Below, piece by piece: positions 33,150 to 50,884 of a stretch of 64,000 nucleotides of DNA (the stretch's first letter is position 1; each line of letters opens with the position of its first letter). This stretch comes from Phyllosticta citribraziliensis (Eukaryota): positions 124,001 through 188,000 of the forward strand of contig NW_027117341.1 of assembly GCF_038025025.1 (NCBI RefSeq), given 5' to 3'. The position numbers were made by a program, and so were the translations under genes. The notes beneath the pieces are model-generated. The model saw only the letters and a list, made by a program, of their open reading frames with translations, was not told the DNA's origin and did no database searches.

Positions 33150-33636
33150 TGCGTCAAGTACTCCTTGTACATTCTCGACGCCGACCTCAGGGGTTTTCTT
33201 GCAGAGTCGGGTGCATTGAATCTGGAAGTCGCAACTAATGTGTGGTTCGAGGGATACATTCACAACTTCAAAGCCACTCGGCATGGGAGACTATCGATCT
33301 CGACGAGTGTAACTCCGATGCCCAGCACCAGTTCCCGGAGCGCTCCATGGACCACGAGAGTTCGAGGGCCCTCGTGCACCTCCTGGACCCGGAAATGGTG
33401 GCCTTCGATGCTCTGCTTTCCACGTCGATGCCACTTCGCCCAAGATGTCGCCTCCTCCGTTCAACCTCGATGCCCTTGCGGCGTGGTTCGAAGACAACAA
33501 GGACATCCTTCTCGCGCTCAAGGAGCGCACGACCCAAGCCGAGTCCCCAGAGGAAAACTTCTCTCTACACGGCAGCGGTTGGAACACCGACAAGATGCAT
33601 TTTGAGGAAACTGGACGCCGGACATGTGTGACTTGA
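33150..33636 (+). pseudogene. Frameshifted/rearranged member of the same family
   Basis: ILDADLRGFLAESGAL..W in one frame, LLDPEMV in a second, MSPPPFNLDALAAWFEDNKD in a third. Confidence 0.6.
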
Positions 33637-34371: not shown

Positions 34372-35121
34372 ATGTCCATGCAGCCTCCCCCCTTCAACGT
34401 CGACGCCCTTGTCGCCTGGTTTGAAGAAAACAAGGACGCCCTTCTCGCGCTCAAGGAGCGCACGACTAAAGCGGAGTCACTCGAGGAAGACCTTTGCCTG
34501 CACGTCTGGGACGAAACCGCCGCTCAAACTCACGTTTGCGATACCACCATCTCCGACTTGGGCTCAGAGACCCCCCGCTCGGTTTCCCGTTCGGCTTCCC
34601 CCGCGTGCACCTGGAACCCAGACGTTGGCGTCGATGACGTTGCCTCCGAGGCCTCCACTGAGCCAGTGGTTAAGGTTGACCGCATTCGCTTTGGAATTTC
34701 TCAGCTCGACCCGGACATGCTCGGCTACCTGGCTGAGTGCGGTGCAATCGCTATGGAAATTGCCCACCAGCGCTGGTTCTCTTTCTACGTTGACGCCACT
34801 GCGTCCAAGCCTCTGAACATGGCCTGGCCCTCCAGCTCCAAGGTCGACACAGAGTGCGCTCTCTTGTGCATCTCGGCCCAGGCCTACGTTACGCTGGCCG
34901 AGCTCCAGGTCCTTCATCCAGATTATATGCCCGAAAACAACAAGCTTCTGGCCGCAGTCATGCATGCGCGCCTGGAAGGGAGCAATTACGGAATTCCGTC
35001 CTGCTTGAGCGGCCTTTCGGACCCTGAGTTCGACAAGAACACTTTCTTCGACTTTCACGAGCACGACTTCTCTTCGCTTCGTCAACGTGAAGTCGTTCGC
35101 GCCCAGGCTGGCTACTGGTAA
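34372..35121 (+). CDS. Hypothetical protein, 'LDPD..G.L.EC.A' family member 3
   Basis: MSMQPPPFNVDALVAWFEENKD...LDPDMLGYLAECGAI. TATA-like catataaaa at ~34038. Confidence 0.7.
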   Translation: MSMQPPPFNVDALVAWFEENKDALLALKERTTKAESLEEDLCLHVWDETAAQTHVCDTTISDLGSETPRSVSRSASPACTWNPDVGVDDVASEASTEPVVKVDRIRFGISQLDPDMLGYLAECGAIAMEIAHQRWFSFYVDATASKPLNMAWPSSSKVDTECALLCISAQAYVTLAELQVLHPDYMPENNKLLAAVMHARLEGSNYGIPSCLSGLSDPEFDKNTFFDFHEHDFSSLRQREVVRAQAGYW

Positions 35122-38012: not shown

Positions 38013-39206
38013 ATGTCGACCAGCTCGCCTTCTCCTCTTCTCAACCTCCCCGCAGAGATTCGCGAGGAAATCTTCACCCACGTCCTTAGCCCCGCCGCTG
38101 CCCGCATCGAACTCCCCGATGACTACGTCAAGTATCGCTTTCACTTGGACCTGTTTCGAGTGAGCCGACAGATCTACCGCGAAGCCCGCCATGTCTTCTA
38201 TCGCCTCAATACCTTTGTGCGCATCGAGACGCCCTGGCCCGAAGCCAAACAACACATTACGGAGGAGGGGCGGGTTCCTTTGGTAGTTTGTGGCGAAGAG
38301 GCAGAGGTCTTTGGGAATGCGCACCTCTGGGCCGATATCGAACCTTATCAGTACAGTTATCCGCTCGACAAGTCGTGCAACATGGTCCTCTTGTTGGATG
38401 ACCTGCCGGCCTTTTGCAAGATATGGTACTACTCGGACCTGACCCATCCAGGCCTGAATATGCATTTGCGGCTTACGTTGAGACTACGCAATCCACACAC
38501 CACCGACGACAAGGATTCCATATTGCCCAAATCGCTACAACAAAAGCTGTTGGAACCCTTTGCCTGCATCAAGAGCCTGAACGAGACGCAAATAGTTGGT
38601 CAACACGACGAATCCGTTTTTCAAGCCCTACGCGCAGCCCAGGCCATACCAAACGATTCTCCAGAAGAGTGTTTGGAAAAGGCGACTCGGCTGAAAGATG
38701 CTGGCAATGCGGCACTCAAGAAGAATGAGCCCAAGGAGGCGATTCGACTCTATGAAGAAGCCTTTCTAGCTATCCACATTGTCTGCTGCGGGCGGCGACG
38801 GTCCATCTGGGGAAACGCGCATTTCGAGACCATCCTTACCTCTGGTCAGTACGAAACACAACACGGGCAGCTGGTACGGCTCATCCTCCGGGTCAAGCTG
38901 GTGGCAAACACGATGCAGGCACACATCAAGATGGAGAATTGGGACGAAGTCAGATTCTGGGGCATGCGCAGCATACAGCTTCTGCGCGAAAGCATGGGAA
39001 TGGATCCTTATGACGAGGATGATGAGCCCATGCTTGGGTTTGCTGCTGCCAATGAGATGGGCAAGATTTACTACCGGACTGGCCTCGCTTGCAAGTACAT
39101 GGAGGATACTGAGCAGGCGAGGAAGCTGTTCAGAGTTGCAGCCCGCTATCTGCCACACGACCCTCTGGTGGCCAGGGATTTGGCGTCTGTTGCGCTGCGG
39201 ATTTGA
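38013..39206 (+). CDS. F-box-like N terminus plus TPR-repeat protein
   Basis: LLNLPAEIREEIF; ATRLKDAGNAALKKNEPKEAIRLYEEA; GKIYYRTGLA..A.RYLPHD. Confidence 0.8.
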   Translation: MSTSSPSPLLNLPAEIREEIFTHVLSPAAARIELPDDYVKYRFHLDLFRVSRQIYREARHVFYRLNTFVRIETPWPEAKQHITEEGRVPLVVCGEEAEVFGNAHLWADIEPYQYSYPLDKSCNMVLLLDDLPAFCKIWYYSDLTHPGLNMHLRLTLRLRNPHTTDDKDSILPKSLQQKLLEPFACIKSLNETQIVGQHDESVFQALRAAQAIPNDSPEECLEKATRLKDAGNAALKKNEPKEAIRLYEEAFLAIHIVCCGRRRSIWGNAHFETILTSGQYETQHGQLVRLILRVKLVANTMQAHIKMENWDEVRFWGMRSIQLLRESMGMDPYDEDDEPMLGFAAANEMGKIYYRTGLACKYMEDTEQARKLFRVAARYLPHDPLVARDLASVALRI

Positions 39207-44961: not shown

Positions 44962-46049
44962 GTGTTGAGGCGTCAAGGAAAGAGATGACTGGCTAATGAA
45001 AACGAAGCAACTCGAACGCTTGATGCCTGAATGGCTTTTTCCGCAAGACTCGCGAGTCGACCTGGCTTGAGGGAACGGTAAAGGAAATCGGCGAAAGAAG
45101 GCTGGCAAAAGAGCACCAAAAAGGACGATCGACGAAAAGGAAAGCTGGAAGACGTGCAGGTTGAAGGAATGAAGACTGGAGAGGCTTGGAGACGATTCGC
45201 GGCGTTCCATAGAGCTCCACAATCCACGGTTCTTCAACCTTCTCTTCTCAACATCGTGCACCCTCAGAAGTGGGCAAAACTCGTGGCATCGGCCGAAAAG
45301 ATGCCTCAATCAAAGACAACTGGAAGTAGGAAAAGTCAACGAGAGATGAAGAGGGTTGAAAAGAGTTGGAGAAGCAATGTCGGGCCGGAGCAGATGTAGT
45401 CAAAAGACTCTCTGGTCAAAGCGTTAAGCGCAGCCAATCGGCGATATCCGATGTTTTAGCGTCAGATTCCCCAAGAACAACCACTCACGTGTTTCCTCTG
45501 CATTCGGCTGAAAGCCAGTAGACAGAAATGCAATACAGATGGGACATAGATATCGCTTCCGAGAATTGAAGGAGGAAAGCCCTTGCTTTTCATACAGCCC
45601 GGAGTGCAAATGTCTGCAGCACAACTTGAGAGTCCTATTCGGACTGTCAAGGCAGGACTGACAACGGAAGAAGAGTAGGAAAAGAACTCCAAAAGCAAAT
45701 CCGCGATTTCAAGGACGAATTACTGCTGCAGCCTGATCACTATGAAAGGTTTATCTAGAGCGCCCACACTCAAACACCGTGAGAACTGTAAAGTGAAGGA
45801 AAGCCACAGTAGTCTAACAGTGTTCTTGTTCCAAGAGTATACGCGTCCATAGTTGGAATTTAAACAACCAGAAGAAAGCCAGTGTCTTCCGGCAGCTGCT
45901 CAAGAGCGTGGTAAGCCGCTTGACAGCATAACAATCCAATTCACGGCAGAAGTCGTCGCGCGACGTTCAGGACGAAAGACTGCCTGCCAGCTCACTGCCC
46001 TCTCATTTCGAGTCTGCCAACAGTCTTTGATATAGTAAAAGCGCCTCTC

Positions 46050-46522
46050 TCACGCCACAGTGGCATCCTGCCCCACACTCTCCCCATCGCCATCGCCCTG
46101 GTCCTGCGCTTCCTCCTTCGCCATGAGCTCCTCCACAACCATCAAACCCTCGCACAAATCGGCAATGCGTTCATCCGCCCCTTTACTATTCTCGGGATCC
46201 TCCAATCATCAGCTGAGCCCAGCTTTTCCAAACCCCACCGCAACACAAGCAATGCACCCACCACATCTGCATTCTCCCGCATCGCGTCAATCGCCTCGAC
46301 GCACTTGTCACAGTGGTACCGCACGTGGCACGCGCAGCCGAGAAACGAGGCGAGGCAGCATTCATACAGCGCGCGGAAGAAGAGTGGGAGGGTGGGGTCG
46401 AGCAGCGCGGCCTGGCTGAGCGAGGTGGCGCGCGGCCAGTCTGCGTCCTTGATGGCGCTGGCGATATCTTCGTCTGCGGCGACATGCGCCCGGAATTCGT
46501 TGGCTTGGGCTGGGGTTGTCAT
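46050..46522 (-). CDS. Small hypothetical protein, 'P.LPL..R' family copy B
   Basis: IASAIKDADWPRATSLSQAALLDPTLPLFFRA. A 62-nt intron restores the acidic tail DPENSKGADERIADLC. Confidence 0.65.
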
Positions 46523-46792
46523 GGTGGTGGGTGCTGCGGTTGAAAGTGTGTGAGGGTACTGGGTGCTGGGTCATTGGGGGTGGGTTGGCTGTGTTGTGTG
46601 GGAGTGTGTGCGGCGGGCAGTTGCGACGTCCACCTGTACATCGCTGCTAGCATTTGCATGTCGTACCTCTTTCTACCAGTCCCGCGATACCATTTCACCC
46701 GGGTATTTCACACTCATGAATCCACAAAAAAAAAAAAAAATGGAAAGAAAGAAACAGAAGTATTCCCCAAGCGGCGGCGCAGCCGCCGCGCG

Positions 46793-46903
46793 CTCCATGC
46801 TAACCTTTTCTATAGGATGGCGCGTCGCAAGCGCTACTATTTTTTCGGATGAAGAGTAGCGTGATCTAGCTACATGAGGGTTCTGGTGATGCTGGGGGGG
46901 GTG
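46793..46903 (+). repeat. Inverted duplicate of the EF-3 branch point, 3' splice site, last exon and proximal 3' UTR
   Basis: Matches the reverse complement of ~47380-47494: first ~42 nt identical, short altered core, then a further ~39 nt identical. Confidence 0.95.
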
Positions 46904-47422
46904 GTCGACAGCGGTCCCTCGTTAGAGGGACCGCTTGGAGACTGCAGTGAGCACTGGGTTGGAGTGGGTTGGAGCTGAGGGTTATCAGTGGCTGAAGGAA
47001 AAGGAGGAGTACGGATGTTTGAGGTTGTGTTGTGGTGGAAGAGAGTCGTGGAGAAAGCTGGATCGAAGCAATCTGGAGGTTCTTCCATGAACTCCGCCTG
47101 GCAGGTGACTAAGCGCTCATGAGGTGCTGCCGGAGTTTCCCCGTTTGGGCGGGTCACGTGTTGGGATATCAGAAGGAATGAATCACTCGTCTTTCAACAT
47201 TGATCCATAGACTCGGGGACAGCAGAAATAAAAGGGCATCACTTTTTGATTCCGTCTATCATAGCAGGTCTTGTTTCCTGCTCTATCAGATTATCCTTAC
47301 GAGCGCCAATGGGAAAAACTCGTCAAAAACCTCGTTAACCGAATGCATTCTTTCCAGAACTCGAAAACCACCAGAAATTCACCTCCCCAGCATCGCCAGG
47401 AGCCTCATGTAGCTAGATCACG

Positions 47423-50400
47423 CTACTCTTCATCCGAAAATACTTCCTCTCCGCGCTTGCGACGCGCCATCCTATAGAAAAGGTTAGCATGGAGTCCTGG
47501 GGGCCGAGGGAAGGCTGGAAGAGGTGTGGTGACGGGGAAAAGGCGAGGGGGGCAAGTCGGGGCAGAATCGACATGGAACCCGGCCGATGCGACGACTGGA
47601 GTGAAAGAGGAAAGAGGGGAGAGGTAACAGTGGAAGTGAAAGAGTGATGGGTGGTATGAGGGGGCGGGGTATCCAGGGGTTGACATACCTGTCCTTCTTC
47701 TTCTTGCGGAGCTCAGCCGAAGAAAGCTTTTGCTTCTTCTTGGTGCCCTCGATCTTGTTGCCCATGGCGTCGAACTTGTCCTCCTCGTCACCCTTCTCGG
47801 CGAGACGGGGACCAGAGCCCTGGCCGGCAACCCAGTTGTGACCGGAGGGAGTCATCTTGCCGTCAACGACAGCCCAGACTTCCTCAGTCAGGTCCTTGGT
47901 GAACTCGGCAGAGTGGGTAATGATGATGACACCACCCTCGAACGACTTGATGGCCTTGGACAGGGCACCGAGCGAGTCACGGTCGAGGTAGTTGGTGGGC
48001 TCGTCAAGGACGATCAAGTGGGGACGCTGCCACGAGCAGGCAGCAAGGACAACCTTGACACGCTGGCCACCAGACAGACCGCGCATGCGCGAGTGAGAGA
48101 CGAGCTCAGCGTCGAGACCAAAGTTGGCGCAGTGGGCCTCAATCTCCTTGCGGACCAGGGGACGGAACTGACCGCTGGCGAGGGCCTCCTTCTGGTCGAC
48201 ATCGGCGACCATCTTGCCGTGAGAGGCAATCAGCTCGTTACGGGGAATCCAGGCGTTGTCGGCGGTCATCATGGGAGTCCACCTCTCGCCCTTCATGCCA
48301 ATGTTGTCACCAAGGGCGAACGAACACTCGTACTCGTAGCTGTTCTTGAACTTTCTACGCGAGTGGATGCCAATGACGCGGCGCGAGGTACCCTCGATCT
48401 TGAAGATCTTGTCCATGGCCTTCTCATCCTCCTCAGTGATGATCTTGTTGGCGCGGTCCATGGTCTCACGGTCCTCGCCAGTCTGGAAACGCCACTGGAT
48501 GTACTCGGAGGGGGTCTTGTCGAGGTGGTGGTCAATGTGGGCAAAGGCGTGCTGCTTGATGTAGGCGATACGGATGTTCTCGTGCTGGTAGACCTCACCG
48601 AGGGTGGGGATGAGCTCACCAGTCAGGACGTTGACCAGGGTGGACTTGCCGGCACCGTTGGGGCCAATGACGGCAATACGGGAGCCGAGCGAGCACTGGA
48701 AGGTAATGTCGCTGATTTGGGGCTTGGAGGTACCGGGGTACTGGAAGGTCATGTTGGAGACACGAACAATGGCCTTGGCCTTGGTCTTGACACCCTCAAG
48801 GAAACCGGGCTCGGGGAACTTGAACTCCATCTCGGAGGCGCTGAGCTCGTAGTAGGAGCGGGCAGAGGGAACCTTCTTGACGAACTCGGACAAAGTACCA
48901 CGGTAACGCTTAAGCTTGAAGCGCTCAATGTGGATGACGTGCTGGATGACATTGTCCAAGAACCTGGTGTCGTGAGAGATGATGATGGAAGTGCAAGGAG
49001 AGGTCTTGAGGTAGTTCTCCAACCAGGCAACGTTCTTGACGTCCAAGTGGTTGGTGGGCTCGTCGAGCAGGAGGATATCGGGCTCCTCGAAGACGGCACG
49101 AGCAAGAGCCAGCTTCATCTTCCATCCACCGGAAAGCGAGGTGATGGGAGCGTTGAGCTGCTCAGGGTCGAAGCCGAACTCGACAAGCTTCTCCCGGACG
49201 TCCTCCTCGGTCTTGGTGATACCGACGGACTCGAGCTTCTTCATGGTCCAGCCAATGACAGTCTGCTCAGTGTCGGCAGAGTCAAGGTCGTGCTCGACGT
49301 AGACAGTCTTGACCTCGTTCTGCTTGGGGAAACCCTCGACCTGCTCGTTGTTGATGGCGCGCATGAGGGTGGTCTTTCCGGCACCGTTGGGGCCGAGCAG
49401 ACCGTAGCGCTGGCCACGCTTCAGGCGGAGATGGGTCTGGTTGAGCAGAATCTTGGCACCGTAGGCAAGGTTGAACGTGCAGTTGCAGAGGTCCTCACCC
49501 TCCTCCTCGTCCGAGGCAATCTCGCCAGACTCCTCGAAACCGGGCAGAGTCTTCTTGCGGAGCTGCTCGGCAGCGTCCTTGGCCTTCTCGTCGCCGACGA
49601 TGGCGGCGAGGTAGGGAGAGGTGCTCTGGAACCAGATGCTGTGCTCCGACTCCTTCTCGTCAACGAGCTGACCAGCAATGGCGGAGATGTACTCGAAGAT
49701 GGGCTCAAACTTGTCGTTCTTGGCCTTGTCGCCGATGATGGACTTCAGGATGGGCAGGATGGTGGAAACGTGGCTGGCGTTGGAAACCTCGGGGAGCTTT
49801 CCGTCGACAATGTTACCAACACGCTCGAGGGTCTCGATGGCCTGCTGGGTCTTGCCACGGGCCTCGGGGTCGGCGAGAGTGTCGTTGTTCTTGACAAGCG
49901 CGGGGTAGAGCTTGGGCAAGAAAGAGGCGACAATGTTGGGGTCCTCGACGAGCTTGCACATGTTGTCGATGATGACGGCCGACTTACGCTTGATGGCAGT
50001 CTCGCGCTCGACAAGACCACGCTCAAGCAGGGGCACCATGATGGCGAGGGTGGGCTCGTGGACGTCAGTGACGAAAGTGGTGGCACCGAGCAAGTGGACC
50101 GTCTCGGGGACGTTCTCAGGCTTGGCGATACACTTGATGAGCTCGGGAATGAAGCGCTCGATATCCTTGTTGGAGATGAGCTCGCAGAGCTTCTCCATGG
50201 TGTGGTAGGCGGCCTTCTTGACCTCGGCCTTGGTGTCCCACATGACCTCGGAAACGACGGGGATCAGGTCGGGGACGCGGAAGCCCATCTGAGCAGGCGA
50301 CTTCTCGCACAGAATCTCAATGGCCTTGAGGTCGGTCATCTTCTCGGGCCACTTCTGGGCGTTGCGGAGCGAGTCGACGATGGGCGGCAGGACGACCTTG

Positions 50401-50884
50401 AGCGAGTTGGCGGCGACGGCGCCAACGATGGCCTCGGCAGCCGCCTGAGCGGCGTTCTTGACGGGGGTCATCTTGTCGCCAATGGCGGCCAGAGTGACGG
50501 GGAGGAGGGCGACGAGGTAGGGCTCGACGGCAGGGGAAACGCTCGAGTGGGACGCAATAGCGCGGATGGCGTCCAGCGCCCGCTCCCTCGCGAGGGCATC
50601 CTTCTTGCTGGCAAGCTGCTTCTTCAGCAGCGCGACAGCCCTGCGAGGCGTTTGTTAGCAGGTGAAACGAGCGGGCGAGGTGTCGCGACTTACTGGGTGG
50701 GAGCATCGCCCTCCTCGATGTCGCCGTTGATGAAGGTGGCGAGGTCATTGGAAGAGGCGTTGATCTCATCCTGGGCCTTGGAGATGGTGAGCTTGTTGAG
50801 GAGCTCCTCCAGGACCTTGACGCTCTTCTGGTTCTCGGCCTTGACCTGGCCGGGCGTGTGGGCGGCGTCGACAGCGGGAGCCAT
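47423..50884 (-). CDS. YEF3: Translation elongation factor 3
   Basis: HEAT N terminus, two ABC domains ([26 protein letters not shown]), chromo insert, last exon [15 protein letters not shown]. Introns 50641-50693 and 47472-47688. Confidence 0.97.

Follow-up and report, generated by a model that had tools for sequence, protein, structure and literature searches.

Why should the end of an essential gene occur a second time, reversed, a few hundred nucleotides downstream of itself? The locus that raises this question lies in a 64,000-nt stretch of the genome of Phyllosticta citribraziliensis, a citrus endophyte (contig NW_027117341.1, positions 124,001 to 188,000 of the forward strand; hereafter the window, whose numbering we use throughout). 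There, the gene for elongation factor 3 (eEF3) is accompanied by an inverted copy of its own 3′ end, which takes in the branch point and acceptor of the last intron, the entire last exon, the stop codon and 41 nt of the 3′ untranslated region (UTR). On balance, we favour the view that this copy is a lineage-restricted inverted duplication produced by template switching, with arms that were later homogenised, and that it lies mostly outside the mature mRNA and has little effect on the main mRNA.

The inverted copy and its source

The eEF3 gene (47423..50884, − strand) was identified by its Pfam domains (HEAT_EF3_N, the four-helix bundle 4HB and ABC_tran, with a basic C-terminal tail) and by its spliced product of 1063 aa, which is identical to P0123 (elongation factor 3, Phyllosticta citribraziliensis) at 1063 of 1063 residues. 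The protein shares 98.6% identity with that of P. citrichinensis and about 95% with those of P. citricarpa and P. citriasiana; the locus is the only strong eEF3 match in the genome apart from others that appear to be New1-like and GCN1-like. Intron 1 lies at 50693-50641. Intron 2 (47472..47688, − strand; 217 nt, GT..AG, branch A at 47484) precedes a last exon (47423..47471, − strand) of 16 codons including the stop, which encodes a 15-residue tail with unusually poor codon adaptation. The first in-frame stop within intron 2 is the TAA of its branch motif, so that retention yields a 1115-aa product without the last 15 normal residues.

The copy (46793-46900, + strand) is the reverse complement of an arm within the gene (47382..47494, − strand), as located by BLAST self-comparison of the window (113 columns, 87.6% identity, E 7.6e-34) and by a genome search; the pair is the sole minus-strand match at E ≤ 1e-3 within the window. 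With the branch A of CTAAC at 47484, the copy starts 10 nt upstream of that residue. Its outer block (46793..46834, + strand), comprising the last 23 nt of intron 2 with branch point and acceptor and the first 19 nt of the last exon, matches 47453-47494 at 42 of 42 positions. A replaced middle follows (46835..46841, + strand), in which sequence comparison finds the 7 nt TACTATT instead of the original 12 nt, GGAGAGGAAGTA, and which forms an internal loop in the predicted fold. The inner block (46842..46879, + strand) holds the end of the coding sequence, the stop codon and the first 20 nt of the 3′ UTR and is again an exact reverse complement, of 47403-47440 (38/38). Beyond it lies a decayed distal end (46880..46904, + strand), whose 21 alignable nt carry four mismatches up to 46900 and whose pairing extends for a few nucleotides by G-U pairs on + strand RNA. 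Between the inner ends of the arms, 481 nt of single-copy DNA (46901..47381) comprise the remainder of the eEF3 3′ UTR and intergenic DNA. Two small hairpins, seen in the sequence and in folds, flank the copy: one with an 8-bp stem and a 3-nt loop, 3 nt beyond its outer end (46771..46789), and one with an 11-bp stem and a 4-nt loop just within its distal end (46910..46935). The original prediction, which described arms of ~110 bp around a ~480-bp loop, a start just before the branch point and the TACTATT substitution, was thus accurate in its anatomy.

A short + strand frame (46716-46859) begins at an ATG ahead of an A-tract, runs through the copy and ends in FSDEE. Its lysine run recalls the eEF3 tail; the frame probably exists by chance. 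Compared with the assembly, a contig of run X1 (see below) has 3 additional letters, which probably belong to this A-tract.

Is the repeat real? That it might be an assembly artefact had been raised with the first description of the locus. We compared four of 24 listed sequencing runs, X1, X2, X3 and, from another species, X8, all as assembled contigs; their RNA nature is an assumption that their spliced joints support. Misassembly is unlikely because contigs of an independent run hold sequence of the copy side. One X1 contig (45809-46822) shows no substitution and ends 30 letters into the copy arm, and the X1 contig of intron 2 stops at 47465, the mirror position of 46822; such paired stops would be the behaviour of a 31-letter-word graph at a true repeat. 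The diverged letters peculiar to the distal end of the copy are found in another X1 contig (46883-47250). By the formal rule, in which 31 letters within the arm are required, no record among these contigs bridges the outer junction, the contig with 30 letters coming closest. A fold-back chimera, however, would not create the one replacement and four substitutions by which the arms differ, nor does it agree with the mirrored contig ends, and the assembly is contiguous (31.35 Mb in 22 contigs). We therefore give an artefact next to no weight. Gaps in coverage (no contig over the copy in X2, X3 and X8; none at 47258-47419 in X1) were not counted as evidence.

The geometry would also permit a switch in the DNA itself. 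Crossover between the arms would flip the loop, and crossover in the outer block would give eEF3 a new 3′ UTR and the tail MARRKRYYFFG, which the copy indeed encodes in the exon's frame, followed by a stop. We regard such an invertible segment as improbable. An X3 contig that covers the spliced exon and the original middle and reaches 47254 agrees with the assembly in every letter and in orientation, and no strand-changing joint was found in the four runs, although contigs drop rare forms. Tails of the MARRKRYYFFG type were absent among 126 proteins inspected, a Pfam scan of 11 nearby open reading frames (ORFs) showed no recombinase family, and the perfect blocks available to crossover measure only 42 and 38 nt.

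A probable local inverted duplication

Within the limits of the searches, in which very common words are skipped, the copy is neither a transposon nor a member of a family. The original arm finds only two places in its own genome, and the loop and the left flank are likewise single-copy. A miniature inverted-repeat transposable element (MITE), or another transposon with terminal inverted repeats, was therefore rejected: there are no dispersed copies of the arm partner, loop or flank, and the sequences flanking 46793 and 47494 differ, with no target-site duplication. The resemblance to MITEs is confined to inverted ends around a few hundred non-coding bases; here, in contrast, the repeat is single-copy and one of its ends is an essential exon.

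The repeat is also exceptional in a wider sample. In 658,000 bases of the genome, the window included, it is the only inverted repeat of such length and identity within 5 kb; other inverted matches were A/T runs, an inverted gene pair, an AT-rich stretch and short palindromes. Among 46 partly overlapping loci of the translation-GTPase, HSP70, histone and HEAT families (158,412 bases), the best inverted match scored 43 bits, as compared with 141 here. Such repeats are hence not a general device of housekeeping genes in this genome. Two of the histone-fold matches recur on a second contig with equal scores and equal spacing but inverted (G000:C5:76195-76485 and 129056-129274; G000:C13:1281700-1281990 and 1228909-1229127), owing either to duplication of a segment of 53 kb or more or to overlap in the assembly. 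Direct repeats were seen when the window was compared with itself (33450-33571 and 34383-34504; 10200-10447 and 10551-10825; 6944-7788).

For other fungi, we drew on a metagenome set with at least 113 loci matching the eEF3 tail motif (one of them, L046, is not eEF3-like), and used the 58 that continue for at least 700 nt downstream, leaving out 55 shorter ones. No inverted copy of the tail was present in these 58 loci (50 distinct), among the matches listed; the best score was 29, as against 160 here. Among the matches listed, no eEF3 locus was closer than about 92% protein identity and none had this intron position. The repeat is thus not general among filamentous ascomycetes, a result without bearing on the genus. 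One locus, L026, has a 63-bp inverted repeat of 92% identity with a spacer of about 350 nt, at 1429-1491 and 1837-1898 nt past the tail motif; the exon is not involved. Rfam returned no match to the repeat region above chance level (one at chance level), and a literature search, which covered neither subscription journals nor supplements, found no description of this repeat. We conclude that it is a local inverted duplication of a gene end, of a kind already known, and that what it covers is unusual.

How might it have arisen? Most probably, a DNA polymerase at work near this very highly expressed gene switched template, so that ~110 nt from the 3′ end of eEF3 were written in reverse into the intergenic DNA, some 480 nt further downstream. 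The identity of the core and the replacement of the 12-nt middle would then reflect further switching, or conversion, from one arm to the other, by which the exon probably also acquired silent changes. In yeast, template switching homogenises the arms of repeats (PMC8604942), and it arises in highly transcribed DNA (PMC3820800). Like the yeast quasi-palindrome events, the present case involves an inverted copy of nearby single-copy sequence, a multi-nucleotide replacement that may be readable from an inverted neighbour, and a very highly expressed gene. A template-switch scar had been proposed earlier as the alternative to a regulatory role, and several details fit that origin: the cluster of distal mismatches, a middle that looks templated and the small palindromes flanking both ends of the copy. 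Together with the preceding 3 nt, the new middle contains 7 nt whose reverse complement occurs 20 nt further along the same arm; this would suit templating as in quasi-palindrome mutations, although only 4 nt are new and the match could be chance. Templated insertions by microhomology-mediated break-induced replication, in work of the PMC8421209 type, are said to form a related system.

The arms have not decayed uniformly, as their mismatches cluster at the distal end: 0 of 80 positions differ in the core and 4 of 21 distally (Fisher p 0.0015 with boundaries set post hoc; p 0.004-0.008 by an end-clustering estimate). The last exon itself bears an unusual signature. Its codon adaptation of 0.20, compared with 0.79 for the gene, is the lowest in the gene (0 of 1032 windows as low), and the ratio of tail to body is 0.25, against a minimum of 0.61 and a median of 0.86 in 39 other fungi. 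Codons ending in A account for 4 of 15 (simulated p 6e-5). Relative to the species of run X8, 5 of 51 nt differ in the exon vs 6 of 513 in the adjoining coding sequence (p 0.0015), a comparison in which the direction of the changes is not visible. Silent changes may thus have leaked from the unconstrained copy into the exon.

Other origins and modifiers were tried and dropped. A reverse-transcribed lariat does not account for a copy that extends 10 nt past the branch A. A circular RNA formed through flanking repeats would not have one arm overlapping the exon and its acceptor. Repeat-induced point mutation was set aside because the blocks of 42 and 38 nt are too short; in the passages of PMC4858203 on Neurospora, its threshold is about 155 bp of perfect homology, or 100 bp beside interspersed homology.

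RNA across the locus and possible functions

The usual eEF3 mRNA is spliced: the 217-nt joint of intron 2 is present in contigs of all four runs. In X1, the depth was 17139 for the spliced joint and 15854 for the exon contig, compared with 553 for the intron contig (3.1%), 47 for the copy contig (0.3%) and 81 for the loop contig (0.5%), so that contigs over the copy run roughly 200-340-fold below the exon contig. Contig depth is a poor guide for ranking parts of a gene, gives neither strand nor ends, and may include library DNA; the values offer a hint of RNA over the copy, at low abundance. Spliced contigs end at 47355 in X2 and at 47254 in X3 and so do not place the poly(A) site, and a scan for poly(A)-signal motifs at the locus gave nothing clear. 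The usual mRNA would probably end before the copy, and the long hairpin would then be confined to rare read-through or stray transcripts, with a small or absent effect on eEF3 output.

A molecule that carried both arms is predicted to fold back into a long stem over branch point, acceptor and stop. Fold z-scores were −12.3 for the − strand and −16.4 for the + strand, with none of 20 shuffles as stable, and the arms-only duplex was calculated at −191.2 kcal/mol (− strand) vs −202.6 (+ strand). Each of the three transitions within the alignable distal part leaves a G-U pair if the RNA is + strand, and an A-C mismatch if it is − strand.

Several observations weigh against a neutral duplication by template switching. 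No junction microhomology is visible at the outer end of the copy, and this end falls just upstream of the branch motif. A perfect core with a decayed end is explained by homogenisation of the arms and would equally result from selection for pairing. As to the codons, a fixed list of rare codons gives 7 here, a count equalled or exceeded in 6 of 76 other tails; moreover, three of the last exon's rare codons sit in the middle that is no longer common to the copy. Ordinary libraries under-read double-stranded and unpolyadenylated RNA, and the low depth may therefore understate hairpin RNA. Finally, the yeast template-switch cases in the passages of PMC8604942 are far smaller: their arms start at 7 bp and their spacers reach 70 nt at most, unlike the arms of about 110 nt and the spacer of 481 nt found here.

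These points leave some room for a selected, cis-acting RNA clamp, a possibility we hold to be doubtful. On read-through, unspliced RNA, the copy would pair over branch point, acceptor and stop, and thereby either block late splicing, with decay as the result, or favour the intron-retaining form without the last 15 residues; both outcomes are as tentative as the clamp itself. In its fullest and equally speculative version, the copy would be reached by read-through transcripts alone, a set enriched for unspliced molecules; a self-targeting duplex of ~100 bp on the RNA of this essential translation factor would then seal the three signals, loop out the purine-rich middle of the exon and hand the RNA to Dicer or the exosome, while concerted evolution of the arms rewrote silent sites of the exon. 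The predicted duplex does cover all three signals, its core is perfect and its distal end decayed, and X1 holds contigs over the loop and the edge of the copy as well as an intron-retaining one. The fold-back of a read-through eEF3 transcript that was originally predicted is supported to this extent; spliced contigs dominate, however, and no contig spans both arms in the four runs.

Long-range pairings at splice signals have precedents in inverted Alu pairs and in the thiamine pyrophosphate (TPP) riboswitch introns of fungi. Portions of PMC11802352 treat long-range RNA pairings by which splice signals are masked or bridged. The pairing predicted here likewise covers branch point and acceptor; in contrast, its partner lies 3′ of the stop and probably of the poly(A) site, and is a near-exact duplicate that is unconserved in distant fungi. 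In Schizosaccharomyces pombe, parts of PMC6028129 report, it is the unspliced nascent RNAs that continue past the poly(A) site and are destroyed by the exosome, in favour of a clamp, whereas 3′-extended RNAs of Saccharomyces cerevisiae are mostly spliced according to parts of PMC12358841. The tail missing from the intron-retaining form belongs to the C-terminal extension with which yeast eEF3 binds eEF1A (PMC6723617, in part).

Evidence from other species cuts both ways. Intron-retaining tails are annotated in the proteins of P. citriasiana (P0001) and P. citricarpa (P0002), as a clamp might lead one to expect. Yet one P. capitalensis protein is annotated as running into a differently placed tail intron, and such annotations in other species are not specific to this repeat. 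The same intron is spliced in X8, with a retained contig at a depth of 205 vs 912, about 18% of the sum; the species of X8 may or may not carry the repeat, which bears on that contig. As far as seen, then, retention would not need this repeat, and the absence of the repeat from the 58 other fungal loci, among the matches listed, also speaks against a clamp.

Still less likely, in our view, is a young hairpin-RNA or antisense locus, in which a separate low-level transcript would form double-stranded RNA, from which Dicer would produce small RNAs directed at eEF3. The transcript could run on the + strand through copy, loop and exon, or else initiate on the − strand within the loop, so that its leader contains the antisense arm; neither route seems more probable than the locus as such. 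The three distal transitions, which favour the + strand duplex, would agree with the first, but three or four one-way transitions are a 1-in-4 to 1-in-8 event (two-sided), too few to decide. The genome has two genes with a Dicer_dimer domain and five Piwi-domain matches, and an A-tract and the start region of a neighbouring unit lie 50-100 nt from the copy. On the other hand, the copy's acceptor on the + strand is not used by any joint in the four runs, the sole adapter-bearing contig end, at 47250, is oriented as are those in eEF3 mRNA (a faint hint of − strand RNA), Rfam gives no match above chance, and silencing an essential factor should be costly.

Portions of PMC10827316 describe inverted-repeat loci for small interfering RNAs (siRNAs) as a known class in plants, and portions of PMC9757828 describe the hairpins of fungal microRNA-like RNAs (milRNAs). 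Both resemble the present locus in a long fold-back, an arm that is a piece of a protein gene, and a host with Dicer and Argonaute. They differ in that here the functional gene, with the end of its intron, itself serves as one of the arms, and the locus is known from its sequence. Neither 'elongation factor' nor 'eEF3' occurs in the available portion of PMC9757828. The milRNA and siRNA classes aside, the origin of young genes by this route has a counterpart: Allen et al. reportedly traced, in 2004, young microRNA genes to inverted duplication of the target gene.

Tail introns, neighbourhood and significance

The last introns of fungal eEF3 genes are varied. Within the short basic tail, they occupy about nine positions in some 50 nt, with acceptor offsets of −1, −4, −6, −12, −13, −14 and −15 and two donor positions inside the tail (loci L006, L008, L014, L019, L055, L068, L070, L097 and others, in addition to 47472-47688 of the window). 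AAG-rich proto-splice sites may explain this scatter; the alternative is a common reason for having a tail intron. The ends of intron 2 (47661-47688 and 47475-47540) can be aligned with the species of run X8, the middle cannot, and conservation at these ends exceeds the need of bare splice signals. In the retained frame, the first eight codons read almost alike in P. citricarpa and P. citriasiana (YVDPWIPP vs YVNPWIPR).

To the left of the copy lies a unit (45809..46690, − strand; contigs in three runs, strand from start context alone) with a 126-codon ORF (46522-46142). The ORF has a good start context and a weak DUF6099 match only in Pfam; protein searches with it or with the copy's frames found no homologue in other species, and the ESM Atlas gave only matches below 0.9. 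X8 contains a homologue of the stretch 46115-46612, which differs by a 25-nt gap and by 11, 10 and 7 substitutions at first, second and third codon positions (28 of at least 32 sites; four beyond a replaced segment were left out). As there is no third-position bias, the ORF is not clearly under protein selection, and the unit is probably a degenerate gene or a non-coding RNA.

The copy is not at the edge of DNA unique to this genome. It had been placed at the edge of a 40-47 kb accessory block, an idea weakened by the X8 homologue of the DNA on its left and by the gene at 38013-39206, which stays within 2-4 accession numbers of eEF3 in both P. citriasiana and P. citrichinensis (accession order being an indirect measure). 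Within the interval, the gene at 43391-42360 (− strand) encodes 343 aa without a Pfam match and falls in a 90% cluster of two members only, which suggests that parts of the interval may be species-specific.

If the duplication is neutral, it offers a clean single case of local inverted duplication that may be altering the silent sites of an essential exon, of value to studies of codon bias and template switching. If instead it is functional, a duplicated splice site would couple failure of termination to eEF3 splicing and RNA silencing, and the locus would illustrate the origin of a regulatory hairpin from the end of a fungal gene. Were the clamp in particular to prove true, this would be a fungal gene observed in the act of converting its own 3′ end to such a hairpin.

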